38,873 bases of DNA from a virus. Position numbers and translations under genes: made by a program. Numbering within the stretch: position 1 is the stretch's first letter; each line of letters starts with the position of its first letter. Shown in pieces: positions 9,858 to 37,915 of this stretch. The DNA is taken from positions 1-38,873 of IMG/VR virus record IMGVR_UViG_3300002138_000031; one strand, given 5' to 3'. The notes beneath the pieces are model-generated. The model searched no databases, was not told where the DNA came from, and worked only from the letters and a program-made list of their open reading frames with translations.

Positions 9858-9887
9858 AAAACCCCAATCAATCAAGACTGAGGTTTT
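9858..9887 (+). terminator. Weak intrinsic-terminator-like hairpin after the tape-measure gene
   Basis: AAAACCCCA ... TGAGGTTTT forms a 9-position stem with one C-A mismatch and a 12-nt loop. The U-run is only 4 nt. Confidence 0.3.
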
Positions 9888-23765: not shown

Positions 23766-23785
23766 ACACAAATAACCAAAATAAG

Positions 23786-23816
23786 AACCTCTACTTTAAT
23801 CGGTAGGGGTTTTTTA
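23786..23816 (+). terminator. Intrinsic terminator ending the long late transcription unit
   Basis: AACCTCTAC (23786..23794) pairs with GTAGGGGTT (23803..23811), 9 bp with one G-U and an 8-nt loop, followed by a T-run to about 23816. Confidence 0.8.
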
Positions 23817-23921
23817 TTATTAAAATATGTAAAAAAGGGCTAATTATATGTTTTTGCATACAATAATATGTATTTAGTAATCAACTATTTAAGGTTTAAT
23901 TTAAGTTATTTTTAAAATAAA

Positions 23922-23953
23922 TTTGTAAGTACGGATTATTGTATGTACGTTTG
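23922..23953 (+). promoter_or_regulatory. Early promoter P1 (-33 TTTG, -7 TAcgTTTG, then CAATACA)
   Basis: TTTG at 23922..23925 and TAcgTTTG at 23946..23953, with a 20-nt spacer. The TTGCAATA extension is shared with 26263 and 29490. A 7-bp inverted repeat (ATTGTAT/ATACAAT) brackets the -7 box. Confidence 0.6.
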
Positions 23954-23974: not shown

Positions 23975-24130
23975 ATGACTAAAAAACAAATAAAAGATAG
24001 GGCTAATTTTAGATTTGATAAATTTGATTTAGCGAAGTGGAAAAAGAAAGCAAAAAAGCATAGTATTACACTTACTGAGTATTTAACTAGAAAGGCTAAC
24101 GATGATAATGATAAACATTTATTTATATGA
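23975..24130 (+). CDS. Small ribbon-helix-helix-like DNA-binding protein (51 aa)
   Basis: My own translation: MTKKQIKDRANFRFDKFDLAKWKKKAKKHSITLTEYLTRKANDDNDKHLFI. The xxFRFDxxxxxxWKxxAxxxxxTLTEYL pattern resembles RHH/CopG-like regulators. First gene after P1. Confidence 0.45.
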   Translation: MTKKQIKDRANFRFDKFDLAKWKKKAKKHSITLTEYLTRKANDDNDKHLFI

Positions 24131-24255
24131 CCTTAATAATAAATAAGCACCATAGTAGTTATTCATCTTTTATAGATGGTAAATACATAGAATCAAACAA
24201 CCTAGAAAACTTAATTAAATTAGCAAACAATTACAATAAAATCATAATAAAATGA
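24127..24255 (+). CDS. Mini-ORF (42 aa), translationally coupled
   Basis: My own translation: MTLIINKHHSSYSSFIDGKYIESNNLENLIKLANNYNKIIIK. ATGA overlaps at both ends (24127..24130 and 24252..24255). Confidence 0.3.
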   Translation: MTLIINKHHSSYSSFIDGKYIESNNLENLIKLANNYNKIIIK

Positions 24256-24563
24256 AAATTACAATTAAACAAACAATCGAAAAAGAAGTACAAGTACCTC
24301 ACTATTTTATGTCTGATGAAAAAGTTTATAGACACGATGGTGATGAAAAGTTTACCTGTATATATAATTACAATGCAATTAAAATAACAGTAATACGCAA
24401 AGGGGATGATGGTAGTATGATTAATTGGGATGATATTACTATTATATCACAGAATCAATTTAAAGCAGTCTTTTTAACCGCTATTGCAGAGATAGCAGGT
24501 TTTGAAATAGACACTTGGGAGGACTTAGAATCAGATGTACAAGCTAAATCAATAGGAAAATGA
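24252..24563 (+). CDS. Early hypothetical protein (103 aa)
   Basis: Track ORF in the ATGA-coupled early chain. Confidence 0.55.
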   Translation: MKITIKQTIEKEVQVPHYFMSDEKVYRHDGDEKFTCIYNYNAIKITVIRKGDDGSMINWDDITIISQNQFKAVFLTAIAEIAGFEIDTWEDLESDVQAKSIGK

Positions 24564-24970
24564 ATACAAAAATAATAATAGCATCTCAAACTAGTAATAA
24601 TGATTGGTGCAACATCAAAACCCCAGAAGGTAAAGAAATCTCTTTAAACCTTAAATCTAACCCTATAACCGCTAAATTAATTCAAGATGGGGCTAAAGAA
24701 GTTGAAGTAAACTTAGTTGATAAAAATGGTAAATTCTATGCTTGGGATATTAAAGAGCAAAAGAGTGGGGGTTTCGCTAAACTAACATCTGAGCAATTAG
24801 CAGAAAAAAAACAAAGAGAAGATCATACGCAAAGAATGATAGTAGCACAAAACTGCATGAGTAATGCAACTAACTTTTATTCTCAAAGTACTGGTAAAAC
24901 ATTTGTAGATATTGCAGCAATGGCAAAAGATATGTATGCGTGGGTAATGACAATAAGCAAAGATGAATAA
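24560..24970 (+). CDS. Early hypothetical protein (136 aa)
   Basis: Track ORF in the ATGA-coupled early chain. Confidence 0.55.
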   Translation: MNTKIIIASQTSNNDWCNIKTPEGKEISLNLKSNPITAKLIQDGAKEVEVNLVDKNGKFYAWDIKEQKSGGFAKLTSEQLAEKKQREDHTQRMIVAQNCMSNATNFYSQSTGKTFVDIAAMAKDMYAWVMTISKDE

Positions 24971-25310
24971 ATTAATATCAAACGAGCAAGTAGATAAGAT
25001 AGTTACTATACTTTCACAAGCAAAGGACAGACTATCTATGTGGAGTGATAATTATGCTACTGAGCATGGATTACCCCAAAAGTCAGAAGATACTATCTTA
25101 GATTCAAAACTAAGTAAGTTAATAGCAGAGATTCAAACCTTATCACCTGCATTGACTGGTAACTTTGGCAAATCAATAAGAGAACCTAAATGGGATAACT
25201 TAGAATCTGAGTATTTTAAAATCACAGGGGAAACAATAGCAATATCTAGCCAAGTAGAATATGAAACCTATACTTTAGAACTTAATAAAATTAATCACTT
25301 AAACGTATGA
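24963..25310 (+). CDS. Early hypothetical protein (115 aa)
   Basis: Track ORF that overlaps the neighbouring genes. Confidence 0.55.
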   Translation: MNKLISNEQVDKIVTILSQAKDRLSMWSDNYATEHGLPQKSEDTILDSKLSKLIAEIQTLSPALTGNFGKSIREPKWDNLESEYFKITGETIAISSQVEYETYTLELNKINHLNV

Positions 25311-25543
25311 ACGATTGGCAAAGATCATTAGATAAATATTTAACTAGTGAACCTAATGATGGGTTTAATAACTGGGTTGAATTATTAGTAGATGAACTTA
25401 ATGATGAGACATATTTAAAGCATGAAGATTGGTTATTATTTAGTAGCGAGTCTAGCGAATGGTTTGGAGAATTGTTTGATAGAGGATATAACCCCCAAAA
25501 AGGCGCAGAAATAATAGAAAGAATTTTAAAATATAAAATATGA
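25307..25543 (+). CDS. Early acidic Trp-rich hypothetical protein (78 aa)
   Basis: Track ORF with ATGA coupling. Confidence 0.5.
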   Translation: MNDWQRSLDKYLTSEPNDGFNNWVELLVDELNDETYLKHEDWLLFSSESSEWFGELFDRGYNPQKGAEIIERILKYKI

Positions 25544-25890
25544 TAATCATTCCTACAATAATAGAAAGTATAGCCACTAGAAAAGATAACACTATAAGCA
25601 TTAGATTAGCGTGTAATGAACTTGCCCCATCTGATGTAGGGGTTATTATGTCAATGCACAATAAATACGCTTACGCTGCAATTAAACCTGAAAATTTCAC
25701 AAAGACTGAATTAGATTTAATACAGAATTTAAAAGTAGATGAAAGTATAGGTAAAAGCCCAAGTCAAAGGTTAAGGGGTGTAATGTTTAGAAATTGGGAG
25801 AATGAGAATGAGGGTTATAAAGATTTTGAAGGTTACTACATTAATAAAATGGATCAAATCATAACACATTTAAAAAACAAATTACAATGA
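25540..25890 (+). CDS. Early hypothetical protein (116 aa)
   Basis: Track ORF with ATGA coupling. Confidence 0.55.
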   Translation: MIIIPTIIESIATRKDNTISIRLACNELAPSDVGVIMSMHNKYAYAAIKPENFTKTELDLIQNLKVDESIGKSPSQRLRGVMFRNWENENEGYKDFEGYYINKMDQIITHLKNKLQ

Positions 25891-26096
25891 AAACAACTGA
25901 ACAAATAAACGGCTTTGAAGTAAACATTGAATGGGAGTTTAAAGAAATAGTAGACACCCATGATAGCAACTGGGCAGAATGGTCGGTAATCGGTAAAAGT
26001 GAAGATGGCAGAAAATATCAAGGCACTTGCTTTGCTGATGCTACCTTCCCGACATCTCAATATGACAAACAAATTTTAAACATTGAAGAAATATGA
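25887..26096 (+). CDS. Early hypothetical protein (69 aa)
   Basis: Track ORF with ATGA coupling. Confidence 0.5.
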   Translation: MKTTEQINGFEVNIEWEFKEIVDTHDSNWAEWSVIGKSEDGRKYQGTCFADATFPTSQYDKQILNIEEI

Positions 26097-26236
26097 CACC
26101 ATCACAATTAAGCGTACAGACAATAGATTATTGCAATGTAATGAACTACAATGCTATCTTAGTTGCTAAATTAAAGCGTTTTCATCAAATACAATTAATC
26201 AGAATTAACCACAAAAAAACATTAAAAAGTAAATAA
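26093..26236 (+). CDS. Mini-ORF (47 aa) ending early operon 1
   Basis: My own translation: MTPSQLSVQTIDYCNVMNYNAILVAKLKRFHQIQLIRINHKKTLKSK. ATGA overlap with the previous stop. Confidence 0.35.
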   Translation: MTPSQLSVQTIDYCNVMNYNAILVAKLKRFHQIQLIRINHKKTLKSK

Positions 26237-26238
26237 TA

Positions 26239-26270
26239 TTTGTTTATTTAAATAAATAACTTTAATGTTG
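26239..26270 (+). promoter_or_regulatory. Early promoter P2 (-33 TTTG, -7 TAatGTTG, then CAATACA)
   Basis: TTTG at 26239..26242 and TAatGTTG at 26263..26270, with a 20-nt spacer. The palindrome TTATTTAAATAA lies between the two boxes. Confidence 0.5.
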
Positions 26271-26275
26271 CAATA

Positions 26276-26368
26276 CATTACGCCAAAATAAAAAAAACAT
26301 TTACCCCCTTTCTTCTCAATTATTCTTTACTGGCGTAATGGTATGCCGAGTGGATAAGGGGGTTTTTT
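26276..26368 (+). promoter_or_regulatory. Structured 5' leader: two crossing helices plus U-tract (attenuator/terminator-like)
   Basis: CATTACGCCA (26276..26285) is a perfect complement of TGGCGTAATG (26331..26340). ACCCCCTT (26303..26310) is a perfect complement of AAGGGGGT (26356..26363), followed by T6. An alternative local hairpin GGCGTA/TATGCC lies at 26332..26347. Confidence 0.6.
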
Positions 26369-26378
26369 ATAAAAAAAT

Positions 26379-27746
26379 ATGAACTACAAAGAATTTATAG
26401 AATCAAAAAAACACTCAATAGGTAATTTTGGATTTGATCCTAAATATATACCCGATATTGCGTTTGACTTCCAACAAGAAATTATTACAAGAGCTGTAAA
26501 AAAAGGTCGTATGGCTGTTTTTGCCGATACTGGACTAGGTAAAACATTAATACAATTAGCAATAGCTAAAAATATAATCGAAGAAACAAATAAAAAGGTC
26601 TTGATATTAACACCATTAGCAGTGGCATTCCAATTTATATTAGAAGCCAATAAACTAGGCATAGATGACATTGAATATTCTAAAGATGGTAATCACACCA
26701 AAAAAATAGTTATATGCAATTATGAGCGTTTACATTATTTCAATAGCGAAGATTTTGTCGGGGTTATTTTAGACGAAAGTTCTATATTGAAAAACTTTGA
26801 CGGCAAAATAAAAGGTCAAGTTACTGCATTTGTAAAGAAGATACCTTATAGATTTTTAAGCACTGCAACCCCAAGCCCTAATGATTTTATTGAATTAGGT
26901 ACAAGTTCAGAAGCTTTAGGGTATATGGGATATATGGATATGCTAGGTAAGTTTTTTAAGAACAATCAAAATAGCGTAGATTCAAACAATAGAAATATAG
27001 GCGAAAAGTTCTATTTAAAGCCACACGCTGAAACGGATTTTTTTGCATGGGTGAATCAATGGGCTATTATGGTAAAAATGCCTAGTGACTTAGGATTTTC
27101 AAATGAAAGATACCAGTTGCCAAATTTAATAGTGAATAAACACATTGTTAAAAATCAATCATTAATTGATATAAACGGTCAAGTGCAACTATTCACACCA
27201 ATGGCAAAGTCAATGACAGAGGTAAGGCACGAGCAAAAACAAACAGAAGAAAAAAGATGTGAAAAGGCTATCGAGTTGGCTGATGGTAAAACCTCTGTAT
27301 ATTGGTGCAACACTAACAACGAAAGTGCAATATTAAAGGCTTCTGATAAAGAAGCTGTAGAAATTATAGGCAGTCAATCAATAGATAAAAAAGAAGAAAT
27401 ACTTTTAGCGTTTGCAAATGGCGAAATTAAAAGACTTATAACTAAAGCTAAAATGACATCAATGGGGTTAAACTGGCAACATTGCAATCATTCAGTATTT
27501 TTCCCTACATGGTCATACGAGCAATATTACCAAGCAATTAGAAGGTTTTGGAGGTTTGGACAAACTAAAGACGTAACTATTGAAATGGTTTTATCCGATG
27601 GGCAAACAAGGGTAACTGAGGCTTTAGAACAAAAAACCAAAAAGGCTATTGAATTATATGAGAATTTGACAAAAAATGTCAATCAATCATTTGAAAACAA
27701 AAACAAAGAATTTAACAAACAAATAATAAAACCATCATTTATATGA
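26379..27746 (+). CDS. SNF2/DEAD-like superfamily 2 helicase
   Basis: Motif I FADTGLGKT, motif II VILDESSILKN, motif III LSTATPSPND, and a C-terminal helicase domain (TSMGLNWQHCNHSVFF ... QAIRRFWRFGQ). Confidence 0.85.
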   Translation: MNYKEFIESKKHSIGNFGFDPKYIPDIAFDFQQEIITRAVKKGRMAVFADTGLGKTLIQLAIAKNIIEETNKKVLILTPLAVAFQFILEANKLGIDDIEYSKDGNHTKKIVICNYERLHYFNSEDFVGVILDESSILKNFDGKIKGQVTAFVKKIPYRFLSTATPSPNDFIELGTSSEALGYMGYMDMLGKFFKNNQNSVDSNNRNIGEKFYLKPHAETDFFAWVNQWAIMVKMPSDLGFSNERYQLPNLIVNKHIVKNQSLIDINGQVQLFTPMAKSMTEVRHEQKQTEEKRCEKAIELADGKTSVYWCNTNNESAILKASDKEAVEIIGSQSIDKKEEILLAFANGEIKRLITKAKMTSMGLNWQHCNHSVFFPTWSYEQYYQAIRRFWRFGQTKDVTIEMVLSDGQTRVTEALEQKTKKAIELYENLTKNVNQSFENKNKEFNKQIIKPSFI

Positions 27747-28753
27747 GCCAAGTAAAAGACCAATTAATCACAGACAAGTACGCAATTTATAACGGGGATT
27801 GTATGGATGTTCTCCCAAAAATAGAGGACAATAGTATAGACCTATGTATTTATAGCCCCCCATTTGCAAACTTGTACACCTATTCAAGCTCTGAAAAAGA
27901 TTTTAGTAATGTTTCAGATACGAATGAATTTTTAACACAATTTGAATTTTTAGTAAAAGAGCTTTCAAGGGTAACAAAGTTGGGTAGAATAAATGCTTTA
28001 CACGTTACCGATATTTGCGATGTGTCTGGAACGTTATCTGACTTCCCAAATAAAATAATAGAATTGTATAAAAAAAACGGTTTTGAATATAAAAATAAGA
28101 TTACTGTCTGGAAAGAACCCTTAAAGGTAAGAATAAGAACGATGGTACAAAGTTTAATGCACAAATTTATAGTAGAAGATAGTACCAAATGTTTTACCGC
28201 AAATCCCGACTATATTCTAATTTTTAGAAAAAAAGGAGAAAATAAAGTACCAGTAACTCACCCATTCGGGTTAACCCATTATGCTGGGGAAATTCCAATT
28301 TTACCAAATATGTTAAGGGCTTACAATAATGCAAACAATACAAAATTCACTGCTGATGAAATGTGGGAATATCTTTTAAAAACAAATGAAGAAGATAAAA
28401 TAACTAAGTTAAATCATTATATTTGGCAAAGGTACGCTTCAAGTGTTTGGGATGATGTAAGAGAGGGGAATGTTATGCCATTCCATGACGCAAAAGAAGA
28501 AGATGACGAGAAACACGTCACGCCCACTCAATTAGATGTTTTAGATAGGTTAGTTGATTTATATAGCAATCCCAATGAAGTTGTATTAAGTCCATTTATG
28601 GGTGTAGGTAGTGACATTTTCAGTCCAGTTTCAATGGGTCGTAAAGCAATAGGTATAGAATTAAAAGATAGTTACTATAAACAAGCTATTTTGAATTTAA
28701 AAGAAGCTGAAAAGAGATACAAACAGAAAGTAAAACAGGAAAGTATGTTTTAA
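27743..28753 (+). CDS. Beta-class N4/N6 DNA methyltransferase (SPPF motif suggests N4-cytosine)
   Basis: An N-terminal catalytic motif IDLCIYSPPFANLYTY precedes the C-terminal AdoMet motif VVLSPFMGVGSD. This is the N6_N4_Mtase (beta) motif order. SPP[FY] rather than DPPY is typical of m4C enzymes. Confidence 0.85.
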   Translation: MSQVKDQLITDKYAIYNGDCMDVLPKIEDNSIDLCIYSPPFANLYTYSSSEKDFSNVSDTNEFLTQFEFLVKELSRVTKLGRINALHVTDICDVSGTLSDFPNKIIELYKKNGFEYKNKITVWKEPLKVRIRTMVQSLMHKFIVEDSTKCFTANPDYILIFRKKGENKVPVTHPFGLTHYAGEIPILPNMLRAYNNANNTKFTADEMWEYLLKTNEEDKITKLNHYIWQRYASSVWDDVREGNVMPFHDAKEEDDEKHVTPTQLDVLDRLVDLYSNPNEVVLSPFMGVGSDIFSPVSMGRKAIGIELKDSYYKQAILNLKEAEKRYKQKVKQESMF

Positions 28754-28765
28754 AGTAAATAAACC

Positions 28766-29050
28766 ATGAATCAACTATCATTTTTCAATACAACAGGGGA
28801 AAGCGGTGAAACCTTAGAAAAACAGGTTAAAAAAGCAACCCATCAAAACGAGGTAATACTTTCGGTATTTAAAAGATATGAAGGCGCTGAGTTTACTGGG
28901 TCTGATATTTGCAATATGACAAGGTATTTACTTACATCATGTAGACGTAGTATAACGGTCTTACACGACAAAGAATTGCTTATCAGAACAGGTAAAAGAT
29001 GGAATAAAGATACTGGAGCAAATGAATTTACTTACAGATTTAAAAATTAA
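28766..29050 (+). CDS. Small winged-helix-like DNA-binding protein (putative)
   Basis: 94 aa. ICNMTRYLLTSCRRSITVLHDKELLIRTGKRW resembles a recognition helix plus wing. Located between the two DNA methyltransferase genes. Confidence 0.35.
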   Translation: MNQLSFFNTTGESGETLEKQVKKATHQNEVILSVFKRYEGAEFTGSDICNMTRYLLTSCRRSITVLHDKELLIRTGKRWNKDTGANEFTYRFKN

Positions 29051-29464
29051 ATGAAGAATAGAAATTTAACACATAGCGATAATTGGGCTACTCCAAAAGA
29101 GTTGTACGATATGTTAAACACTGAGTTTAATTTTGATTTTGACCCATGCCCATTACATTCTAACTTCGATGGGTTATTAATTGAGTGGGGTAAATCTAAT
29201 TTCATTAATCCTCCTTATTCGAGATTATTGAAAGAGGCTTTTATAATAAAGGCAATCGAAGAAAGTAAAAAAGGTAAACTATGTGTAATGTTATTACCAG
29301 TCAGCACAAGTACAAAAATATTCCATGATCACATATTGCCAAATGCAAAAGAGATCCGATTCTTAAAGGGGAGAGTTAAATTTTTAGGGCTAAATACCAA
29401 AGGTGAATATGTTACAAATAAAGCACCTATGCACGATTCAATGATTATAATATTTAAAAATTAA
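29051..29464 (+). CDS. Phage Dam-type N6-adenine DNA methyltransferase
   Basis: NWATPKELYDMLNTEFNFDFDPCP at the N-terminus and the catalytic NFINPPYS (NPPY) match the small phage Dam family layout. Confidence 0.8.
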   Translation: MKNRNLTHSDNWATPKELYDMLNTEFNFDFDPCPLHSNFDGLLIEWGKSNFINPPYSRLLKEAFIIKAIEESKKGKLCVMLLPVSTSTKIFHDHILPNAKEIRFLKGRVKFLGLNTKGEYVTNKAPMHDSMIIIFKN

Positions 29465-29466
29465 CC

Positions 29467-29497
29467 TTTGATATTTCAAAAATAAATATTAGGTTTG
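29467..29497 (+). promoter_or_regulatory. Early promoter P3 (-33 TTTG, -7 TAggTTTG, then CAATAAG)
   Basis: TTTG at 29467..29470 and TAggTTTG at 29490..29497, with a 19-nt spacer. Confidence 0.55.
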
Positions 29498-29506
29498 CAA
29501 TAAGTA

Positions 29507-29594
29507 CTACCACATGATCAATAAACTTTATACATTAAAACCCCTTAATCAATCTAATGCCTGTGGTAGGGCTAAGTGCGAAAGAGGGGTTTTT
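29507..29594 (+). promoter_or_regulatory. Structured 5' leader, second copy of the crossing-helix plus U-tract architecture
   Basis: CTACCACA (29507..29514) complements TGTGGTAG (29562..29569). AAAACCCCT (29537..29545) complements AGGGGTTTT (29585..29593), with a U-run. The geometry matches 26276..26368 but the helix sequences differ. Confidence 0.6.
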
Positions 29595-29611
29595 ATATTT
29601 TTACACAAATA

Positions 29612-30283
29612 ATGGCTAAAAGATTTACTGACACATCTAAATGGAATAAACCCTTTGTAAGGGGCTTAGACGCACCTTATAAACTATTTTGGTTTTATAT
29701 ACTAGACGATTGCGACCATGCTGGGATTTGGCAAGTTGATATTGAAGTTGCTCAAATAAGAATAGGTTGTAATATAGATTTAATTTCAGCGTTAAAGGTT
29801 TTTAATAATCATATAAAAGTATTTGACGATGGGCAAAAATGGTTTATACCTGATTTTATAGACTTCCAATATGGTGAACTTAACCCTGCTAATCGTGTAC
29901 ATCAGTCTATTTTATTATTACATAAGAAATATAAAATTAAGCCCCTAACAAGCCCCTTACAAGGTGCTATAGATAAAGATAAAGACAAGGATAAAGATAA
30001 AGATAAAGACAGCGACAAAACTGAATTTCAACAAACATTTGATTCTTTTTTAGAAATGAGAAAGAAGATAAAAAAACCTGCAACCGATACCGCAATAGAT
30101 TTACTTAAAAAGAAACTGACTACACTTTCAAATAGTAATACAGATTTAGCGATAAAGATATTAAACCAATCAATTATTAATTCATGGCAAGATGTGTATG
30201 AACTTAAAGTAGATAAGCAAAAATCAATAGACTTAGCCCCGAAAAAATTAAGAGACATTAACATTGATGAAATCAAATATTAA
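29612..30283 (+). CDS. Replication initiation/organiser protein with DnaD-like C-terminal domain
   Basis: ATG 29612 (MAKRFTDTSKWNKPF...). The track's GTG at 29576 lies inside the leader hairpin. A (KD)n linker DKDKDKDKDKDKDKDSDK is followed by FDSFLEMRKKIKKP...ILNQSIINSWQDVY, which is DnaD-like. Unverified. Confidence 0.5.
   Translation: MAKRFTDTSKWNKPFVRGLDAPYKLFWFYILDDCDHAGIWQVDIEVAQIRIGCNIDLISALKVFNNHIKVFDDGQKWFIPDFIDFQYGELNPANRVHQSILLLHKKYKIKPLTSPLQGAIDKDKDKDKDKDKDSDKTEFQQTFDSFLEMRKKIKKPATDTAIDLLKKKLTTLSNSNTDLAIKILNQSIINSWQDVYELKVDKQKSIDLAPKKLRDINIDEIKY
29972..30018 (+). repeat. Hexanucleotide GATAAA-type microsatellite encoding a (DK)n linker
   Basis: gataaagataaagacaaggataaagataaagataaagacagcgacaaa, in frame within the replication protein. 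Confidence 0.85.
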
Positions 30284-30860
30284 ATTATACCCGCAAAAAT
30301 TATTAGTATCTGTTTGGCAAAGGTACGGTGAAAAGGTTTACAGAGGTTTTCAAGTAGATCAAGAGTGCGCTCATTACGTTAGATTCTTTTGCCAGGAGCG
30401 TGAACAATATTACCCAGCTTTAAAAGATAATCCAAATAAAGGGTTTTTTGTTTATGGTTCTAAGGGGGTTGGCAAGACATTAAATTTCTTTGTTTATAGG
30501 AAAATACAAACTAAATACGGAGAACGTGGTATGATGATAATTTCAGCTAAACAGATTGAAACTAATTTTAAAATAAATGGTGAGGCTTATATTTCTATGT
30601 TGGTAAATGTTCCTGAGTTAATGATTGATGATATAGGAACTGAGAGCCAAGTATTAAAAGATTACGGCACTGATAGGAATTTGATACATGATATTTTAAT
30701 TCAGAGGTATGTAGGATTTCAGAGGGGTGAAAATATAACACATGGCACAACTAATTTAAGTATGGATTTATTAAAGCAGTTTTACGATGCTAGGTTATTT
30801 GATAGAATGAAGGAAATGTTTATCCCTAAAAAGATAGTAGGAGAATCTAAAAGAAAATGA
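30264..30860 (+). CDS. DnaC/IstB-like AAA+ ATPase (helicase loader)
   Basis: Walker A FVYGSKGVGKT and Walker B ELMIDDIGTE. 198 aa, directly after the DnaD-like gene. Confidence 0.7.
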   Translation: MMKSNIKLYPQKLLVSVWQRYGEKVYRGFQVDQECAHYVRFFCQEREQYYPALKDNPNKGFFVYGSKGVGKTLNFFVYRKIQTKYGERGMMIISAKQIETNFKINGEAYISMLVNVPELMIDDIGTESQVLKDYGTDRNLIHDILIQRYVGFQRGENITHGTTNLSMDLLKQFYDARLFDRMKEMFIPKKIVGESKRK

Positions 30861-31054
30861 CAAAAGATTTAATAGCAGATATAGTATTAATGTATATAGG
30901 GGAGTTTAAAGATTCTACTATTAATGGGTCTATATTAGTTGTTAAATTTCAAGATAAAGAAACTATGTTTTTAGATTTAAACCAGATGCAATATTTATAC
31001 GAAACAGACCAATTAGAAAAAGAAATTTATGATAAGATTAACGGAAATAAATAG
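30857..31054 (+). CDS. Hypothetical protein (65 aa)
   Basis: Track ORF with ATGA coupling. Confidence 0.45.
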   Translation: MTKDLIADIVLMYIGEFKDSTINGSILVVKFQDKETMFLDLNQMQYLYETDQLEKEIYDKINGNK

Positions 31055-31436
31055 TGAGATATTCAAATTGAATAACCAAATAATAGATTTAATAAAAGAA
31101 AGGGATTTATTGATCGGGGATATAATTAGTGTTCCTTTAAATAAACACGATATAATTATAAAGGTAGTATCTGAAACAACTGGTGTGTCTATTGATTTTA
31201 TAAAGGCAAAAGATAGGCATAGACATATAGTTGAGGCAAGACATATAACGTCAGTATTACTTAAAAAATATACAAAATATTCATTGTCTATGATTGGGCA
31301 AATATTAGGGTTAAAAGACCATGCAACGGTCATACACGCAATAAATAAACATGAAGATAGATTGTGTATAAATGATAAAAAGTATATAGAGTTATACGAA
31401 CAATGTGAAAACAATTTAAACAAAATAATACAATGA
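31029..31436 (+). CDS. DnaA C-terminal (domain IV) HTH protein
   Basis: GVSIDFIKAKDRHRHIVEARHITSVLLKKYTKYSLSMIGQILGLKDHATVIHAINK matches the Bac_DnaA_C pattern (R..iv.aR.ia.yL....t..S...IG..fg.rDHsTVihA). Confidence 0.8.
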   Translation: MIRLTEINSEIFKLNNQIIDLIKERDLLIGDIISVPLNKHDIIIKVVSETTGVSIDFIKAKDRHRHIVEARHITSVLLKKYTKYSLSMIGQILGLKDHATVIHAINKHEDRLCINDKKYIELYEQCENNLNKIIQ

Positions 31437-31561
31437 AAAAGACAATTTACATTTTACTAATTATATTATCTATATTGCTAATGGTAAAATATACAGATAA
31501 ACCATGCACAAAAAAAGAGTGTTATGGTAGAGGGTTTCACGCTAAACACATAGACAAATGA
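31433..31561 (+). CDS. Mini-ORF (42 aa) with N-terminal hydrophobic segment
   Basis: My own translation: MKKTIYILLIILSILLMVKYTDKPCTKKECYGRGFHAKHIDK. ATGA overlaps at both ends. Confidence 0.35.
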   Translation: MKKTIYILLIILSILLMVKYTDKPCTKKECYGRGFHAKHIDK

Positions 31562-31647
31562 CGTACATTTACTTTTTAGATTTAGTGGTAATAGGCTGCT
31601 TTACATTAATGGTTAGAAATAATATTTTAAATAAAATAAAGTTATGA
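31558..31647 (+). CDS. Mini-ORF (29 aa) membrane peptide
   Basis: My own translation: MTYIYFLDLVVIGCFTLMVRNNILNKIKL. ATGA overlaps at both ends, linking 31433..31561 to 31644..31880. Confidence 0.3.
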   Translation: MTYIYFLDLVVIGCFTLMVRNNILNKIKL

Positions 31648-31880
31648 CCAATGAACAAATATATGAGTTAGTCTGTAAATTACACTTTAAAACAGATTTA
31701 AGTAATGCTGAAATAGCAAAGGAATTACAGAAAGAAGGTGTTACTCAATATACACATCAAGCAATGTCCTTAGTAGTTTATGACGACTTAAATATAGCGG
31801 TAAGTAGAATAATCAGAAGTGAACAAATAAGCCATGAAAAGGCAAAAGAATTTACAAAAAATAGAAAAATATATTGGTAA
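31644..31880 (+). CDS. Small HTH-like protein (78 aa)
   Basis: KTDLSNAEIAKELQKEGVTQYTHQAMS resembles a helix-turn-helix. Confidence 0.35.
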   Translation: MTNEQIYELVCKLHFKTDLSNAEIAKELQKEGVTQYTHQAMSLVVYDDLNIAVSRIIRSEQISHEKAKEFTKNRKIYW

Positions 31881-32146
31881 TGGCAACAGGCGAATTACAA
31901 CTATTTTTAGAGATATGGTCAGAGAGAGAACATATTTCTGAGTTAAGTGGTAAGCCTTTATTAAATATTGGGCATAGTAAGTGGCATTGGCAGTTCCTTC
32001 ATGTGTTACCCAAAGGACGTTTTAAAAGTTTGAGATTAGATAAGAGAAACATATTACTTGCATTGCCAGAAGAACACGATCACCAAGATAGGTATGAAGT
32101 ATTTGTTAAGCGCAAAGAGGAGTTACTTTTAGAAATATATGGGTAA
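31874..32146 (+). CDS. Degenerate HNH-like protein lacking the zinc cysteines
   Basis: LFLEIWSEREHISELSGKPL ... FLHVLPKGRFKSLRLDKRNILLALPEEHD parallels small phage HNH proteins, but the usual Cys positions are S/L/A. Confidence 0.35.
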   Translation: MVMATGELQLFLEIWSEREHISELSGKPLLNIGHSKWHWQFLHVLPKGRFKSLRLDKRNILLALPEEHDHQDRYEVFVKRKEELLLEIYG

Positions 32147-32218
32147 GATAATTAGCGATTTAAGGTATAAAAATAAACAATAACTTATAAAACACTTTTT
32201 TAATTGAAATATATTTAT

Positions 32219-32226
32219 TAGATTTG
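32219..32226 (+). promoter_or_regulatory. -7 promoter box TAgaTTTG, 4 nt before the start codon
   Basis: ttagatttgaagtATG, in an 84-nt AT-rich gap after the replication operon. Confidence 0.45.
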
Positions 32227-32230
32227 AAGT

Positions 32231-32464
32231 ATGAGAAAAGTAATATTTATAAACGAGCCTGAGAAATCAGAAGGAAAAGGAGTTGAATTTACGCATTGTA
32301 AGGATGGCGTTAAGGGATGGGTTAAAGCTATTTCAAAACCCAATAATTATGGAAAGGTAGTTTATTTAGGTAAATGTGAGAGAGATGGGGATGTGTTTGC
32401 CGCTTATAATATTATAGGGAATATTCTTATTTACAAAGGTCACTTAAACAACGGAACATATTGA
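32231..32464 (+). CDS. Small hypothetical protein (77 aa) with its own promoter
   Basis: Track ORF. First gene of the accessory block. Confidence 0.5.
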   Translation: MRKVIFINEPEKSEGKGVEFTHCKDGVKGWVKAISKPNNYGKVVYLGKCERDGDVFAAYNIIGNILIYKGHLNNGTY

Positions 32465-32470
32465 TTAAAC

Positions 32471-32638
32471 ATGAAGGACTACCCTCACATAAAAAAGAGT
32501 AAATTAGAGCGTAAAGAGATAGCAGAAAGGCTACGCTATAAGAATGTAAATAGTTTTAGAAATACAAGTAAATATACGCTTATACTTGAACTTGTTGAAC
32601 ATTCTATAAAACTTGGAACTGAGATAAAAGATGAATAA
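32471..32638 (+). CDS. Small HTH-like protein (55 aa)
   Basis: My own translation: MKDYPHIKKSKLERKEIAERLRYKNVNSFRNTSKYTLILELVEHSIKLGTEIKDE. It fills a gap that the track leaves to an antisense ORF. Confidence 0.35.
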   Translation: MKDYPHIKKSKLERKEIAERLRYKNVNSFRNTSKYTLILELVEHSIKLGTEIKDE

Positions 32639-32750
32639 AATAACTCTTGAATATATTAAAGGATATGAATGCAGTTACTTTATAGGCACGATTGAAGAAG
32701 TAGAAAAAGAGAAGATTAAACTTGAAAAAAAGGATATAAAACAAAAATAA
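32631..32750 (+). CDS. Mini-ORF (39 aa)
   Basis: My own translation: MNKITLEYIKGYECSYFIGTIEEVEKEKIKLEKKDIKQK. It overlaps the previous ORF by 8 nt and ends 1 nt before the ATG at 32752. Confidence 0.3.
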   Translation: MNKITLEYIKGYECSYFIGTIEEVEKEKIKLEKKDIKQK

Positions 32751-32751
32751 C

Positions 32752-33063
32752 ATGAATAAAGAACAAATACACATAGGAGAAGTTGTGGGCGATGAATGGG
32801 GTATAAAAGACGAACTACTATGTATAGAAATGATGGCTAAATTTGATATTGTCAAGTCAGCATATCGCAAACCACCAAAAGCATCGTTAGCAAGTTTATT
32901 TTCTAAAGAATCAGATAGACCACAAAAACCAAGATATTTTAAAGTATCTTATAGAATAACAACACTTGGTTTATTAGCTATGACTGATGAACAACTGGGT
33001 CAGCACATAAAAGGTCTAATATCACAATTAGAAACTAACATTAAAGAACGAGGATTAGAATAA
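32752..33063 (+). CDS. Hypothetical protein (103 aa)
   Basis: Track ORF. Confidence 0.5.
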   Translation: MNKEQIHIGEVVGDEWGIKDELLCIEMMAKFDIVKSAYRKPPKASLASLFSKESDRPQKPRYFKVSYRITTLGLLAMTDEQLGQHIKGLISQLETNIKERGLE

Positions 33064-33075
33064 AACATAAATAAA

Positions 33076-33489
33076 ATGAAAACGATTCTACTTATAACAA
33101 CTATACTTTTACTTTCATCTTGCAGTCAAAAGCATTGGCAGTCAAGAGGATTTAAAAAGGGATGGGTAGACACTACGACAATTACAAAGCACGATACTAT
33201 TCGGGGGTTCGACACAACCGTTTTAAGAGTGTTTGACACATTAACCCATAGTGATACACTATTCGTTATAAAAGATGGCGTTAAAGTAAAAACAATTATC
33301 CAATGGAAGGATAGAATAGTAGAGCAGCAAATTACAAAATTAGATACGATAGTAAAGTGGAAAACAAAGCAAACAATTATAAGTGATTGCCCTAAAATTA
33401 AATGGTATGAATGGTGGTATATTGGAGTGATAGGTACTTTGATCTTAATACTTCTATTTGGAATATTGATTGGATATTTAAAAAAGTAA
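33076..33489 (+). CDS. Lipoprotein with C-terminal transmembrane anchor (u-spanin-like architecture)
   Basis: Lipobox MKTILLITTILLLSSC|SQ, a beta-rich middle, and a C-terminal TM segment WWYIGVIGTLILILLFGILIGYLKK. Six D-T-[TIL] tripeptides lie in the middle part. Confidence 0.6.
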   Translation: MKTILLITTILLLSSCSQKHWQSRGFKKGWVDTTTITKHDTIRGFDTTVLRVFDTLTHSDTLFVIKDGVKVKTIIQWKDRIVEQQITKLDTIVKWKTKQTIISDCPKIKWYEWWYIGVIGTLILILLFGILIGYLKK

Positions 33490-33490
33490 T

Positions 33491-34027
33491 ATGCAGCATT
33501 TAATATTAGGGGAGTCAAATAATGAAATATATAGAGCAAGAAATATATTGTTCTTTTATAATAATAAATACTTTTTAGTGTCATCATGGCTTTCTGGTTA
33601 TGATTCTGATTGCGATTTTATACTAGACTTAATACAAAAGAATAACCAAAAGAGTAGGCAAAAAGAAATTGATTACCCTTATGAAGTTTCAAAATCGAAT
33701 AGACTTGAAAGTGATTTCAGAAATAGTGGGAATGATTTTATAGCAGCAACTAAGAAAGCAGTATATGAAACTAATTATATTTATTACGATAATGCAGGTA
33801 AAAGATACGCAGTACAAAGCCAAAAACCATATACAGAAGCTATATTAAATGCTACTGACTTGTATGATGAAATAGATAAATGTAAAGATATGTTGACTAG
33901 GTTTAAGTTAGATTACCTTATCGAAAGTGCAGAAGATTTGTTACGTGCAAATATTGTGTATGATATTAAAGATAGAAAATACTTACAAAAAACAGAAGAA
34001 ATAATAAAATATATAAACAATCAATAA
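33491..34027 (+). CDS. Hypothetical protein (178 aa)
   Basis: Track ORF. Confidence 0.5.
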   Translation: MQHLILGESNNEIYRARNILFFYNNKYFLVSSWLSGYDSDCDFILDLIQKNNQKSRQKEIDYPYEVSKSNRLESDFRNSGNDFIAATKKAVYETNYIYYDNAGKRYAVQSQKPYTEAILNATDLYDEIDKCKDMLTRFKLDYLIESAEDLLRANIVYDIKDRKYLQKTEEIIKYINNQ

Positions 34028-34029
34028 TA

Positions 34030-34254
34030 ATGAAAAGTACTAAAAACCCATCCGCAAAAGAATTATTCACTCATGCTTTCGATATGATGTTACTTCTTAA
34101 ACAAAAGGCTATTTCAGTAGAAGAAGCCAAAGCACAAGCCAACTTATTAAAACAATCTAACAACTTATTAAAGTATGAATTAGATCGTGCAATCGCTATT
34201 TGCAAATACGAATCTATAACCATTAGAGAAATAGAGGGTAGAAGTGAATCTTAA
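34030..34254 (+). CDS. Hypothetical protein (74 aa)
   Basis: Track ORF. Confidence 0.45.
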   Translation: MKSTKNPSAKELFTHAFDMMLLLKQKAISVEEAKAQANLLKQSNNLLKYELDRAIAICKYESITIREIEGRSES

Positions 34255-34326
34255 CCGATAGAATACTAACTAAATTATTTGGTAAGTTATGAAATCAAAG
34301 ACCCTGCTATATAACAAAGAAAAGAA

Positions 34327-34992
34327 ATGAAAGATAATAATTCAAATACAAAACAATCTACAGATTGCTCAAAGCCACTGTTACAAGACGGTTTTTCTCT
34401 TTCGATTGATGATTTAGAAGGTGAAATTTGGGTTGATGCCATTGGATTTGATGGGATTTATGAAGTTTCTAATTTAGGCAGAGTAAAATCATTAGGTAGA
34501 TGGGTTTCTAACGGTAAATCCGAAAGATGGGTTAAGGATAGAATCAGAAAATTATGGAAAGGGGAAAAAGACCAAAGGGTAACTATGAATTTTAGTGTTG
34601 TAAATGTGCGTTATTCAGTAAATCTACCTGAACTTATCTATTTGTCATTCAATCCAAAAGAAAACTTAAACGGATATGTAATTGCTCATTTAGACAAAAT
34701 AGCATACAATAATAAATTATCTAATTTAAAAAAATTAACTGTTTCAGAATCGAGAAAAATAAGCGAAAAACTAGGAAACTTAAAACCTATACCTATTCGT
34801 GGAGAATTAAAATACACAAGGGAAAATACAGTTGTTAAAAATGGAATAGTTACAGAAAAGAAATGTAAAAAATGTAATTCAGTAAAAAATATTTCTCTTT
34901 TTGAAAAATTCAGAAATACTTGCCTTGAATGTAGAGGCAGATTAAGAAAAAAAGATGTCGTTAAAGATTCGGTTTCTGAAACTGTCTTGTAA
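34327..34992 (+). mobile_element. Free-standing HNH homing endonuclease (NUMOD4 + HNH_3 type) gene
   Basis: GEIWVDAIGFDGIYEVSNLGRVKS (NUMOD4-like), YVIAHLDKIAYNNKLSNL (HNH_3-like H..D..NN..NL), and a C-terminal CKKCNS...CLECRG zinc-finger-like pair. It is flanked by non-coding gaps, unlike its neighbours. Confidence 0.75.
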
Positions 34993-35038
34993 CTAGATAA
35001 TACACGAAGTAAAAAAATATATAAAAACAAAATAACCA

Positions 35039-35257
35039 ATGGCAGCCATAGACGACTACATAAAAGACCTACAATATGCACTTCATAAAAAATATGGGCA
35101 TTGTCAAGTAAACAGACAGTATTTAAGTAACTGCGTTCACTTCTTTTATAAACCTGAGCCAACTGCTTTAAAAGATTTTAAACTAACCTACACCGAACTT
35201 GAAGAAAACATGAACAATAAAACAATACCTGAAAAAATAAATCAATTACTGAAATAA
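35039..35257 (+). CDS. Hypothetical protein (72 aa)
   Basis: Track ORF. Confidence 0.45.
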   Translation: MAAIDDYIKDLQYALHKKYGHCQVNRQYLSNCVHFFYKPEPTALKDFKLTYTELEENMNNKTIPEKINQLLK

Positions 35258-35260
35258 TAC

Positions 35261-35268
35261 TATATTTG
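35261..35268 (+). promoter_or_regulatory. -7 promoter box TAtaTTTG, 4 nt before the GTG start of the sigma-like gene
   Basis: tatatttgtggtGTG. Confidence 0.4.
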
Positions 35269-35272
35269 TGGT

Positions 35273-35764
35273 GTGTCAAGGTCTCAAATACTTACCGTTT
35301 ACCACCATAAGACATTTATGAGTGCCTGTAAAAATATAGGTGGGCAAGATTGGGAAGATTTAAGAAATGAGGTAGTACTAAAGATGTATGAATTATCAGA
35401 TGAAAGATACACAAACATAAAAAACCATTTGGCATTTATGATAAGAGTGGCGCAAACCACTTCTATTGATAAGGCTAAAAAACACTCAAACAAGTATGAG
35501 TGGGTATTAAATAACCCTGAGTGGTTTTGCAATATTGCAGAAGTAGTAACCGATTTTGATAATGAGACTGATATAACGGCTAAATTAAAAAAAGACATTG
35601 ACGATCCAAAAAGACTTTACCATAGTAGAATATTTGTATATTGCAACATTTACGGAAGTATTAAAGAATGTTCAAGAAAGATAGGCATACCATATAAAGA
35701 AGTTAGGACCACATACAACGATTATAAATTATATTTAAAAAATTGGTTAAAGTCGCATATATAA
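35273..35764 (+). CDS. Sigma-70 family (ECF-like) RNA polymerase sigma factor, putative
   Basis: Region 2-like WEDLRNEVVLKMYE...HLAFMIRVAQTTSIDKAKKHS and region 4-like SRIFVYCNIYGSIKECSRKIGIPYKEVRTTYNDYKLYLKNWL. Confidence 0.55.
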   Translation: MSRSQILTVYHHKTFMSACKNIGGQDWEDLRNEVVLKMYELSDERYTNIKNHLAFMIRVAQTTSIDKAKKHSNKYEWVLNNPEWFCNIAEVVTDFDNETDITAKLKKDIDDPKRLYHSRIFVYCNIYGSIKECSRKIGIPYKEVRTTYNDYKLYLKNWLKSHI

Positions 35765-36717
35765 AGAACGCAAGTCCTGGAGTTAATTACCATAGGCTTG
35801 AGGTACCTTTTGCTTTAATAGCAGAAGATGAACGGTTTAAGGTGTTTGAAGTTCAAATTGCTACGGATGAATATGACGTAATAGTATTTAATCGCATACC
35901 GTTCCAACCATTAAGCACACTTCAAAGACTTAAAAAACAAGGCATTAAAATAATATTTGATATTGACGATTACTGGATGAGACCGATATGGCATACTAAC
36001 TTTTCAAACCAATGGGAGTTAGAATTTTGTGCAGAGATAATTAAGTTTTTAAGACTTGCAGATATTGTTTGGGTGTCAACACCTTACCTTCAACAAAAGA
36101 TAGCAGAAATGCTAATAGAATCAGTTTTGATCCCTAATGCTTTGCTATATGAGGAAGCCCAATTTAATAGGGTTAATATAGAACGTGACACTATTAATTG
36201 TGGGTGGGTAGGTGGCATAGCGCACCATAGAGACATAAATTTACTTACTGAGCCGTTAAAACAACCGCACAAAGCTAAAATGGTATTGGGTGGTGTAAGT
36301 GATATTAATAATAAATATTGGCAATATATTGGGCAAGTATTAGGCGGGGGCAAAATAAAGAACGTTCAAATACTTACACACGAAAATCAATACAACTATG
36401 GGTTTATGTATAATTATTTAGACATAGTTTTACTGCCTTCTTTCAATGATACTTATACCATGTGTAAATCTAATTTAAAAATATTAGAGGCAGGGGCGCA
36501 TAATTTACCAGTTATTACTAATGGGGTTATTTATAAAGAAGTAACCGATAAAATGGGCATAAGGGTAAATGGTCAAAGGGATTGGGTTAAAGGTATTAAG
36601 AAACTAACAGAAAGTAAAAGAATGAGAACTGAGTTAGGTTTGGCACTTGGTGAATATACCAGAGAAAAGTACGACATCTTTAAGATAAACGAAAAAAGAA
36701 AACAAACGATATTATGA
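35743..36717 (+). CDS. Glycosyltransferase, GT-B (group 1-like), putative
   Basis: TTG start overlapping the sigma gene end. GWVGGIAHHRDINLL, and the C-terminal CKSNLKILEAGAHNLPVITNG resembles the GT1 nucleotide-sugar binding motif. Confidence 0.5.
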   Translation: MVKVAYIKNASPGVNYHRLEVPFALIAEDERFKVFEVQIATDEYDVIVFNRIPFQPLSTLQRLKKQGIKIIFDIDDYWMRPIWHTNFSNQWELEFCAEIIKFLRLADIVWVSTPYLQQKIAEMLIESVLIPNALLYEEAQFNRVNIERDTINCGWVGGIAHHRDINLLTEPLKQPHKAKMVLGGVSDINNKYWQYIGQVLGGGKIKNVQILTHENQYNYGFMYNYLDIVLLPSFNDTYTMCKSNLKILEAGAHNLPVITNGVIYKEVTDKMGIRVNGQRDWVKGIKKLTESKRMRTELGLALGEYTREKYDIFKINEKRKQTIL

Positions 36718-36938
36718 CACCAAAAGAAAAGGCACAGGAGCTAATAGACAAATTTAAAGGGTATGCAGATGACAGTACATCAAGTTGTATTGATAATGCT
36801 AAATATATTGCTTTATTTTGTGTAGATGAACTCATCAAGTATCTACCCTCATCAAATGGCAACCATCCAAACCTTCAAGAAAATGAATATAATAGTGAAT
36901 GGTGGGAAGAAGTCAAACAAGAAATAAGAGCGATATGA
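36714..36938 (+). CDS. Hypothetical protein (74 aa)
   Basis: Track ORF with ATGA coupling. Confidence 0.45.
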   Translation: MTPKEKAQELIDKFKGYADDSTSSCIDNAKYIALFCVDELIKYLPSSNGNHPNLQENEYNSEWWEEVKQEIRAI

Positions 36939-37150
36939 CACCTGACCAAAAAGAACGCATTAAAGAAGGTATGGAAGCCTACCTTTACTATGAGGCAAAT
37001 GGTATATCTGTATATAAAACACCTATGATAGACGCAGCACAAAAAGTAAAGAAGGAGTTAGGAATGAGTAACATTAGTGTTTGCAAAGGTTGTTTAGACG
37101 AAATCCACACATACATGGCAGAAATTTATAAAATATATGAAAATAGTTAA
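36935..37150 (+). CDS. Hypothetical protein (71 aa from ATG 36935)
   Basis: The in-frame ATG at 36935 forms an ATGA overlap with the previous stop. The track's earlier start at 36899 is less likely. Confidence 0.45.
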   Translation: MTPDQKERIKEGMEAYLYYEANGISVYKTPMIDAAQKVKKELGMSNISVCKGCLDEIHTYMAEIYKIYENS

Positions 37151-37913: not shown

Positions 37914-37915
37914 AT

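Follow-up and report, generated by a model that had tools for sequence, protein, structure and literature searches.

The 38,873-nt virus record IMGVR_UViG_3300002138_000031 from IMG/VR, called the window here for its whole length, is a Flavobacterium siphophage-like genome with nearly all of its genes on the + strand. Between an open reading frame (ORF) that stops at 26236 and the ATG of a DNA helicase gene at 26379, it carries a cassette in which a predicted promoter is followed by a terminator, and the apical region of that terminator is complementary to the 5′ leader of the same transcript. A second cassette (29467-29594), with helix sequences unrelated to those of the first, sits before the replication-initiator operon. 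Comparison with related phages makes the leader-loop pairing a well supported case of a selected RNA structure. We lean towards reading each cassette as a self-contained attenuator close to its promoter, where the long-range pairing would form first and then set or regulate read-through into the replication genes.

Anatomy of the two window cassettes

The first cassette consists of the following elements, the promoter, leader segments, linker and start codon being read directly in the sequence.

26239-26242, + strand: −33 element TTTG of the cassette-1 promoter, with a 20-nt spacer to the −7 box
26263-26270, + strand: −7 box TAATGTTG, which departs from the Bacteroidetes consensus TAnnTTTG at one position
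26276-26285, + strand: seg1 CATTACGCCA, 5′-terminal leader segment and partner of seg3
26286-26302, + strand: A-rich unstructured linker
26303-26310, + strand: seg2 ACCCCCTT, 5′ arm of the lower terminator stem, pairs with seg4
26303-26363, + strand: terminator hairpin, lower stem 26303-26310:26356-26363
26311-26313:26352-26354 and 26315-26317:26348-26350, + strand: extensions of the terminator stem in the nested fold
26331-26340, + strand: seg3 TGGCGTAATG, in the terminator apical region, complement of seg1
26332-26337:26342-26347, + strand: upper stem GGCGUA/UAUGCC, with one G.U pair
26356-26363, + strand: seg4 AAGGGGGT, 3′ arm of the lower terminator stem, pairs with seg2
26363-26368, + strand: U-tract (T6), separated from the helicase ATG by 10 nt
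26379, + strand: helicase start ATG

From general knowledge of Bacteroidetes promoters we take transcription to start at about 26274 (±2 nt). The preliminary description of this region had placed the promoter, the four segments, the U-tract and the ATG correctly. It was also right that seg1 and seg3 form a perfect 10-bp helix and seg2 and seg4 a perfect 8-bp helix, and that the two cross. Their order, 1-2-1′-2′, is that of an H-type pseudoknot, and loop lengths of 17, 13-20 and 7-15 nt look permissive for both helices at once. The local fold of seg3 (GGCGTA/TATGCC) is likewise real, as part of the nested minimum free energy (MFE) structure. That structure is a long, irregular terminator hairpin over 26303-26363 (−24.0 kcal/mol) whose upper stem takes up seg3. 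The overlap between seg3 and the terminator is confined to this accessory upper stem (6 nt), which is worth −5.5 kcal/mol, and the seg1:seg3 duplex is worth −14.2 kcal/mol.

The hairpin has the hallmarks of an intrinsic terminator, a G+C-rich stem (ACCCCCUU/AAGGGGGU) with a directly adjoining T6 (26303-26368). It had been described in this way before, with a stem of 8 bp; the G+C-rich stem and U-tract stand, and the stem is longer by the two extensions listed above. It is not a compact hairpin with a loop of 3-8 nt, as the stem interiors measure 45 and 37 nt in cassettes 1 and 2. A scan for terminators with 3-8-nt loops listed neither cassette, though it listed the conventional terminator at 23783-23814.

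The −7 box, the terminator and the ATG follow one another (26263-26270, 26303-26368, 26379), so that the terminator is promoter-proximal rather than operon-end, as had been proposed, and lies between promoter and first gene as in a classical attenuator. The gap between U-tract and ATG is only 10 nt and leaves no room for an additional promoter. Every transcript that enters the helicase operon must therefore pass the terminator, which bears out the earlier claim.

Cassette 2, to which the preliminary description had pointed (29507-29594), does have its elements in the order of cassette 1, and their sequences differ.

29467-29470 and 29490-29497, + strand: promoter element TTTG and, after a 19-nt spacer, −7 box TAGGTTTG
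29507-29514, + strand: seg1 CTACCACA
29537-29593, + strand: terminator hairpin, lower stem 29537-29546:29584-29593, arms AAAACCCCUU/GAGGGGUUUU
29562-29569, + strand: seg3 TGTGGTAG, displayed by the apical hairpin GCCU[GUGGUA]GGGC
from 29590, + strand: U-tract; stem plus U-tract span 29537-29602

Crossing helices alone prove nothing, because crossings of 7+7 bp are common by chance in a sequence of 33% G+C: the window holds 71 per strand. The specific arrangement is rarer. A helix from leader to terminator interior as good as that of cassette 1 was matched in 15 of 5000 dinucleotide shuffles (p = 0.003), and for cassette 2 in 93 of 5000 (p = 0.019). When 12 terminator-like hairpins of the window were ranked by leader-interior pairing, the two cassettes came out on top (z = −3.8 and −3.76).

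Conservation and covariation in related phages

Relatives were retrieved through the helicase, giving 80 IMG/VR loci and 80 metagenome loci; among named phages, the window helicase is 83% identical in amino acid sequence to those of Flavobacterium phages hattifnatt9-1 and snusmum6-1. Many of the regions upstream of the relatives' helicases have the same order of elements in entirely different sequences. Altogether, 63 distinct cassettes were found in 49 related phage loci, and they fall into 53 sequence families. A hattifnatt cassette, for instance, reads GCTTCGAC ... GTCGAAGC within a GCCUAUUUGUA/UACAGAUAGGC terminator, and further leader/loop pairs are ACCGCCAAG/CTTGGCGGT (locus L009), ACTGGAACT/AGTTCCAGT (L083) and GTGTAGGAG/CTCCTACAC (L053).

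Pairing goes with the promoter. We surveyed 243 distinct terminator-like hairpins from 83 related loci and the window, scoring an exact TAnnTTTG box 20-75 nt upstream and a perfect leader:interior complement of at least 7 bp. The complement was present in 20 of 30 hairpins with a box and in 17 of 207 without one (Fisher p = 3.8e-12). Pairing is also specific to each cassette. Cognate leader/loop helices scored 18.5 on average and non-cognate ones 13.2 ± 2.9 when leaders and loops were exchanged between cassettes, a control that preserves composition (Mann-Whitney p = 4e-17). Among 120 distinct regions upstream of helicase genes, 35 had a terminator no more than 70 nt from the ATG; 25 of these 35 also had a −7 box, and 20 of the 25 had the pairing.

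Compensatory changes are clearest in an alignment of seven sequences (L016, L020, L026, L102, L110, L114 and L128), which were aligned by sequence alone over 124 columns at 91% identity, with one gap in one row. It contains four loop variants. All seven sequences can form the complete leader-loop helix, in which both partners have changed at four of the eight pairs. Pairing is likewise complete in the terminator helices, where such double changes affect 3 of 16 pairs. This level of covariation was reached by none of 500 shuffles and by no slid register. The preliminary description had staked its case on relatives preserving at least one of the pairings, and both are kept with compensatory changes. 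Near-identical cassettes can differ at just the loop pair, as in hattifnatt (GTGAGACG/CGTCTCAC) vs snusmum (GTGGAACG/CGTTCCAC). The alignment thus presents one scaffold with four different complementary loop pairs, and half of the kissing-helix columns are variable. Such variation may point to diversifying selection that acts on specificity.

G.U pairs and strand asymmetry indicate, as far as sequences can, that the selected molecule is the sense-strand RNA. The hairpin is more stable on the + strand in 34 of 37 cases and G.U pairs make up 63 of 613 pairs vs 22 of 564, a comparison biased by the cassette finder, which accepted G.U on the scanned strand.

A consensus architecture can be drawn from the relatives, with medians taken from 36 cassettes and promoter counts from 60. 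Of the 60, 45 have a −7 box that matches TAnnTTTG exactly, and TTG occurs 17-22 nt upstream of the box in 29 (48%, vs 12% at random positions). About 6 nt after the box a 5-bp 5′ hairpin begins, the loop of which is seg1. A linker follows (median 23 nt, A/U-rich and G-poor), and then a bipartite terminator of about 50 nt, often with a purine-rich internal loop, whose apical loop of about 8 nt is seg3. The terminators have hairpins of about −20 kcal/mol and a median of 7 U in the 9 nt after the stem, and the U-tract lies 10-20 nt before the ATG. The leader-loop helix is 8 bp long (range 7-12). Seg1 itself has no conserved nucleotides, with 34 distinct sequences among the 36 cassettes.

In the terminator fold, seg3 has no more than 2 nt paired in 26 of 40 relatives. 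Modelled on these folds, the conserved feature is an intramolecular loop-loop (kissing) contact between the 5′-terminal hairpin and the terminator apical loop that would be compatible with the terminator stem. A choice between a pseudoknot and mutually exclusive folds had been put forward for cassette 1; the compatible contact is what relatives support, and strict exclusivity is not. Cassette 1 of the window is the only copy in which seg3 also competes with a weak upper stem.

Two details of the relatives' cassettes deserve mention. The purine-rich internal loop, with 5′ GGA, GGC or GGG opposite 3′ AAA or GAA, stands between lower and upper terminator stems in L001, L025, L039, L047, L051 and others, and may be a bend or a tandem G.A motif. 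A seemingly conserved linker motif, ACAT (14 of 36 linkers), was rejected as it is explained by family relatedness.

The cassettes are confined to the early/replication region, with 2-3 per genome; conventional terminators of the same genomes have 4-8-nt loops and no leader complement. In hattifnatt there are three, all in the rightward replication region. A plain terminator already precedes one of the cassettes in hattifnatt9-1; the cassette terminator must therefore act on transcripts from its own promoter. Cassettes are not a universal feature of Flavobacterium phages, since none was found in the whole genome of the helicase relative LS06-2018-MD05 or in the early/replication region (record 28000-46450) of the F. 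columnare phage FCV-1.

Cassettes and genes also assort freely. The same gene bears different cassettes in different phages, and the genes downstream are diverse (helicase, initiator, HNH endonucleases). Loci L086 and L088 keep seg1 and seg3 of cassette 2 and a conserved GCCTGTGGTAGGGCTAAG, and have a terminator stem that is different yet complementary. There, this sequence family stands before another first gene (MTDPAFLFYPSDFL...), so cassette and controlled gene are not inherited as a unit.

Searches aimed at cassette 1 itself returned little. Helicase-based retrieval from IMG/VR and metagenomes gave nothing closer than 89% amino acid identity, and short-word blastn against all loci gave no match covering the cassette-1 helices, its single match being 18 nt of the terminator interior on the reverse strand (E = 0.002). 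The exact seg1..seg3 pattern retrieved from IMG/VR only an unrelated GC-rich palindrome. This match, in the GC-rich viral contig L084 (IMGVR_UViG_3300022742_000063, 1394-1473), was discarded: it consists of tandem palindromes, CATTACGCCAATTTGGCGTAATG and ACTACGCCAATTTGGCGTAGT, whose exact agreement with the seg1 and seg3 words is coincidental, and is no cassette.

In hattifnatt9-1 (L097, MN812207; region 9441-9479), the annotated helicase start (record 9441, MQIQIGIFILNIM...) falls inside the cassette terminator hairpin. Alignment with the window helicase suggests that the true start is the downstream ATG (ATGACAGAT, MTDYEKF...).

Possible roles of the leader-loop contact

An equilibrium model of the growing transcript predicts that the leader is unstructured until seg3 has been made. 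From then until seg4 is made, seg1:seg3 is the sole stable nascent fold in the two window cassettes (−12.8 and −13.1 kcal/mol). The modelled seg1:seg3 pairing probability is at least 0.9, and mostly about 1.0, in 21 of 25 cassettes.

In the mechanism we favor, host sigma-A RNA polymerase would initiate at about 26274. Seg1, made first, would stay single-stranded while the A-rich linker is transcribed, and would pair with seg3 upon its emergence, at a point where seg4, the terminator's 3′ arm, is still to be transcribed. The seg2:seg4 stem would then close around the pre-formed seg1:seg3 helix to give a pseudoknot; the equivalent in relatives would be a kissing complex of the 5′ hairpin with the terminator loop. 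This contact may set how many of the polymerases go on into the helicase/methyltransferase operon, possibly under regulation by a host factor, and cassette 2 would exert the same control over the replication-initiator operon. Polymerases that stop would release a leader RNA of about 90 nt with a paired 5′ end. We think that the pairing tunes or regulates termination because read-through is obligatory, the terminators look strong, and the pairing distinguishes them from operon-end terminators.

Several points weigh against this attenuator reading. Promoter, 3′ ends and read-through are all predictions, and we infer promoter firing, termination at the hairpin, and the direction and size of the pairing's effect on termination. 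The contact could be neutral for termination or even favor it, since seg3 in most relatives is an unpaired apical loop, away from the U-tract-proximal stem. When the energies are roughly summed, the pseudoknot comes out only about as stable as the nested terminator fold. Both window cassettes are variants that lack the 5′ hairpin stem present in 27 of 36 relatives, so that their seg1 is linear. Cassette 1 has no sequence homologue in any retrieved locus; its helices are backed by analogy and by shuffling (p ~0.003), with no direct covariation. The nested-fold z-scores are modest, at −2.5 for cassette 1 (−1.7 on the − strand) and −1.3 for cassette 2, and are uninformative alone because nested folding leaves out the crossing helix. 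The finder's bias in the strand comparison belongs here as well.

The earlier claim of attenuator or antitermination logic needs a corresponding adjustment. The promoter-proximal terminator with obligatory read-through stands. The alternative helix of a classical attenuator, one that uses an essential part of the terminator stem, does not, as seg1 reaches only the upper stem in cassette 1 and a mostly unpaired apical loop in relatives. Discrimination between transcripts from the cassette's own promoter and those reading in from upstream was also considered, and seg1:seg3 probabilities in upstream context gave it no support: the mean falls with added context (0.89, 0.74, 0.57), and both window cassettes stay at or above 0.88.

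It is tempting to go further, and we do so only tentatively, to a sequence-addressed control by RNA alone, in which the 5′ hairpin loop of each operon would recognize only its own terminator loop and so decide whether polymerase passes. A genome's two or three loop pairs differ from one another, and from strain to strain the loop variants co-vary. If this holds, accumulated leader RNAs could act in trans on nascent copies of their own cassette, giving operon-specific feedback or strain-specific cross-talk among co-infecting phages. Such trans-acting leaders would be analogous to plasmid incompatibility or P1/P7 heteroimmunity determinants.

Less likely than our preferred reading is the idea that pairing leaves termination unaffected, and that the structure is an RNA-stability device or the leader RNA is itself the product. 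Pairing would bury the 5′ end and reinforce the 3′ hairpin of the ~90-nt leader RNA against 5′-end-dependent and 3′ exonucleolytic decay, and it would also cover the 3′ end of the upstream operon and the 5′ untranslated region of read-through mRNA. The leader hairpin or seg1 does begin about 2-3 nt from the predicted 5′ end, and in most relatives the contact fits a fully formed terminator, with 7-9 bp between loops of about 7-10 nt. Terminators as strong as these look should also let short RNAs accumulate. A plain 5′ hairpin would nevertheless be enough for 5′ protection, and a trans-acting small RNA should keep its seed, yet nearly every cassette has a seg1 sequence of its own. The design is moreover associated with terminators that require read-through, not with operon-end ones.

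We consider it unlikely that the kissing or pseudoknot structure is a handle for a structure-specific trans factor, a phage early protein or a host protein, that turns the terminators off at the early-to-middle transition. Lambda N with boxB, LoaP-type leader elements, and Rom, which binds kissing complexes regardless of sequence, would be the analogues. Such a switch would be suited by several cassettes per genome that all stand in front of replication genes and follow an early operon free of attenuators, and also by a fixed geometry with free sequence, which a factor reading shape could tolerate. However, Pfam and PHROG yielded no antiterminator, NusG-like, RNA-binding or Q-family match upstream, a homology scan that would miss analogues. 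Apart from the helicase, the methyltransferase and one weak match (32% identity to hattifnatt9-1), no early protein common to the window phage and hattifnatt could be detected, which makes a phage-encoded factor less likely and, so far as gene content tells, favors an autonomous or host-factor mechanism.

Another reading is an element that works as DNA. The interleaved inverted repeats could be protein operators, could form a cruciform or an origin, or could be recombination cassettes similar to the promoter-early stem-loop (PeSL) elements of T4-type phages, promoter-plus-stem-loop units that have been implicated in modular shuffling (PMC2839356). Cassettes do lie at mosaic boundaries, the window sharing with hattifnatt only the genes just named and with LS06-2018-MD05 four genes, and one gene can carry different cassettes in different phages. 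We regard this explanation as very unlikely. The half-sites differ between the copies of one genome, so that a common binding protein is improbable; G.U pairs and strand asymmetry point to RNA; a loop-loop contact is impossible in duplex DNA; and the PeSL stem-loop lies before the start site (PMC2839356), while the cassette hairpin is downstream of it. The cassettes could still take part in recombination in addition to their function as RNA.

Two further explanations are hardly credible. One is that the terminator simply ends the upstream operon, its place behind the next promoter being fortuitous, and that seg1 matches seg3 by chance in AT-rich DNA; crossing helices are indeed abundant, and there is no terminator between 26236 and 26303 besides the cassette's own, but the shuffles, the promoter-proximal association, the cognate pairing scores and the compensatory changes all speak against chance. 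The other, a ligand-sensing riboswitch with a pseudoknot aptamer (of the SAM-II, preQ1 or fluoride type) and the terminator as expression platform, would account for an H-type topology in the 5′ leader of a methyltransferase-containing operon; against it, Rfam 15 (4227 families) gave no match at the gathering score in the window and 11 relatives and nothing above noise at E ≤ 10 for both cassettes, no nucleotides are conserved between the two copies of one genome or among the 53 sequence families, and the downstream genes are diverse.

Leader peptides were looked for as short ORFs, which run through the hairpin in 40 of 63 cassettes vs 32.6 ± 3.9 expected, a weak excess. In the window, ORFs at 26338-26382, 29557-29619 and 29514-29612 start inside terminators and run through, and the 14-codon ORF of cassette 1 ends in ATGA, overlapping the helicase start. 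Translational coupling through such ORFs is possible.

Known systems and genomic setting

Almost nothing is known, to our knowledge, about the timing of gene expression in Bacteroidetes phages, and Bacteroidetes transcription and translation signals differ from those of model systems. The cassettes offer a testable handle on early-to-middle switching. Within about 130 bp, each brings together a host promoter of consensus type, a hairpin at the 5′ end, a terminator and a loop-loop contact that is programmable, and the arrangement is found ahead of the replication genes of dozens of uncultured Flavobacterium phages from fresh water and the Baltic. They provide a natural system in which to study what tertiary contacts with a terminator loop do to intrinsic termination, they could become a modular, orthogonal regulatory part for Bacteroidetes genetics, and they add a structured RNA motif outside all Rfam 15 families. 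A tRNA/tmRNA scan found none.

The literature we searched offers analogies only, with no description of a terminator that pairs, through its loop, with the hairpin of its own 5′ leader. The cassettes look like an undescribed type of RNA control element among the leader attenuators, with a function that we propose from sequence. The closest logic is that of the lambda pR′-tR′ region, where a promoter-proximal terminator that yields 6S RNA is read through by antitermination with Q. Shared features are a strong promoter, an intrinsic terminator within ~100-200 nt, an operon that must be expressed, and a short terminated RNA as default product. Unlike lambda, the cassettes come with no Q-like protein or binding/pause site that we could find, there are several per genome rather than one, and their leader-to-terminator-loop pairing has no counterpart there.

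Loop-loop recognition is familiar from ColE1 RNA I/II, R1 CopA/CopT, pT181-type countertranscript attenuation, P4 CI and P1/P7 c4. These antisense and immunity RNAs also pair through 7-9-nt hairpin loops that vary freely and co-vary, and several of them cause premature termination. They differ in acting in trans, from an antisense promoter or as a processed RNA, whereas both loops of a cassette are on one nascent transcript. For the − strand between 26207 and 27128, the matches listed include no TAnnTTTG-like antisense box, so that the antisense promoter of countertranscript attenuation (pT181, pIP501, pCF10) was not seen. The put RNA of HK022, one of the cis-acting antiterminator RNAs, works by binding polymerase, and the terminators it affects are distant ones; none of its own hairpins is a terminator, nor are they known to kiss. 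Like the cassettes, it places two hairpins just downstream of a phage promoter and acts in cis without a phage protein, but no sequence or Rfam similarity between the two was found.

In the zipper-type attenuator of pLS20-family conjugation operons, an upstream leader pairs with the terminator 5′ stem and loop (PMC13401043). That system resembles the cassettes in its leader terminator before the first gene, its complementary upstream leader, its antiterminated default state and the lack of a known ligand sensor (PMC13401043). In the cassettes, by contrast, the partner is essentially the apical loop alone, with about 8 bp and the terminator stem left free, and the leader measures ~90 vs 456 nt. 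PeSL stem-loops of T4-type phages lie upstream of the −35 box, between the boxes, overlapping either one, or just before the start (PMC2839356). They too are small promoter-plus-terminator-like cassettes, repeated before early genes in mosaic phage regions (PMC2839356). A PeSL stops upstream transcripts only, whereas the cassette hairpin begins ~30 nt after the predicted start, so that its own promoter transcribes it, and it carries a complement to the 5′ end of its own RNA.

The genes under the two cassettes were assigned by their PHROG matches.

26379-27746, + strand: SF2 DNA helicase, first gene under cassette 1 (phrog_62, 7e-51)
27743-28753, + strand: DNA methyltransferase, 3′ of the helicase (phrog_67, 2e-34)
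29612-30283, + strand: replication-initiator-like protein, first gene after cassette 2 (phrog_678, 5e-11)
30267-30860, + strand: DnaC-like loader, next gene (phrog_50, 1.5e-16)

Mosaicism around these genes is extreme. When window positions 23975-38871 were compared by tblastn with L097 (hattifnatt9-1) and L200, the helicase and the methyltransferase were common to both. Beyond these, hattifnatt9-1 gave the one weak match and LS06-2018-MD05 three tblastn matches, and the remaining early and replication ORFs of the window had no match in hattifnatt9-1 or LS06-2018-MD05 at E ≤ 1e-3.

Upstream, the structural genes are closed by the conventional terminator at 23783-23814, which has a 6-nt loop. 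A consensus promoter (TACGTTTG at 23946) then heads the attenuator-free early operon (23975-26236) of nine unannotated small ORFs, none of which had a significant match in Pfam or PHROG or could be assigned a function. A perfect 11-bp inverted repeat, CATACAATAAT/ATTATTGTATG, occupies 23857-23867 and 23935-23945; its right arm adjoins the −7 box of this early promoter, and the repeat could serve a regulator, early or late, as its operator. Within the structural region, a 12-bp hairpin between an A-run and a T-run (9858-9887), directly after an ORF ending at 9851, looks like a conventional terminator that works in both directions.

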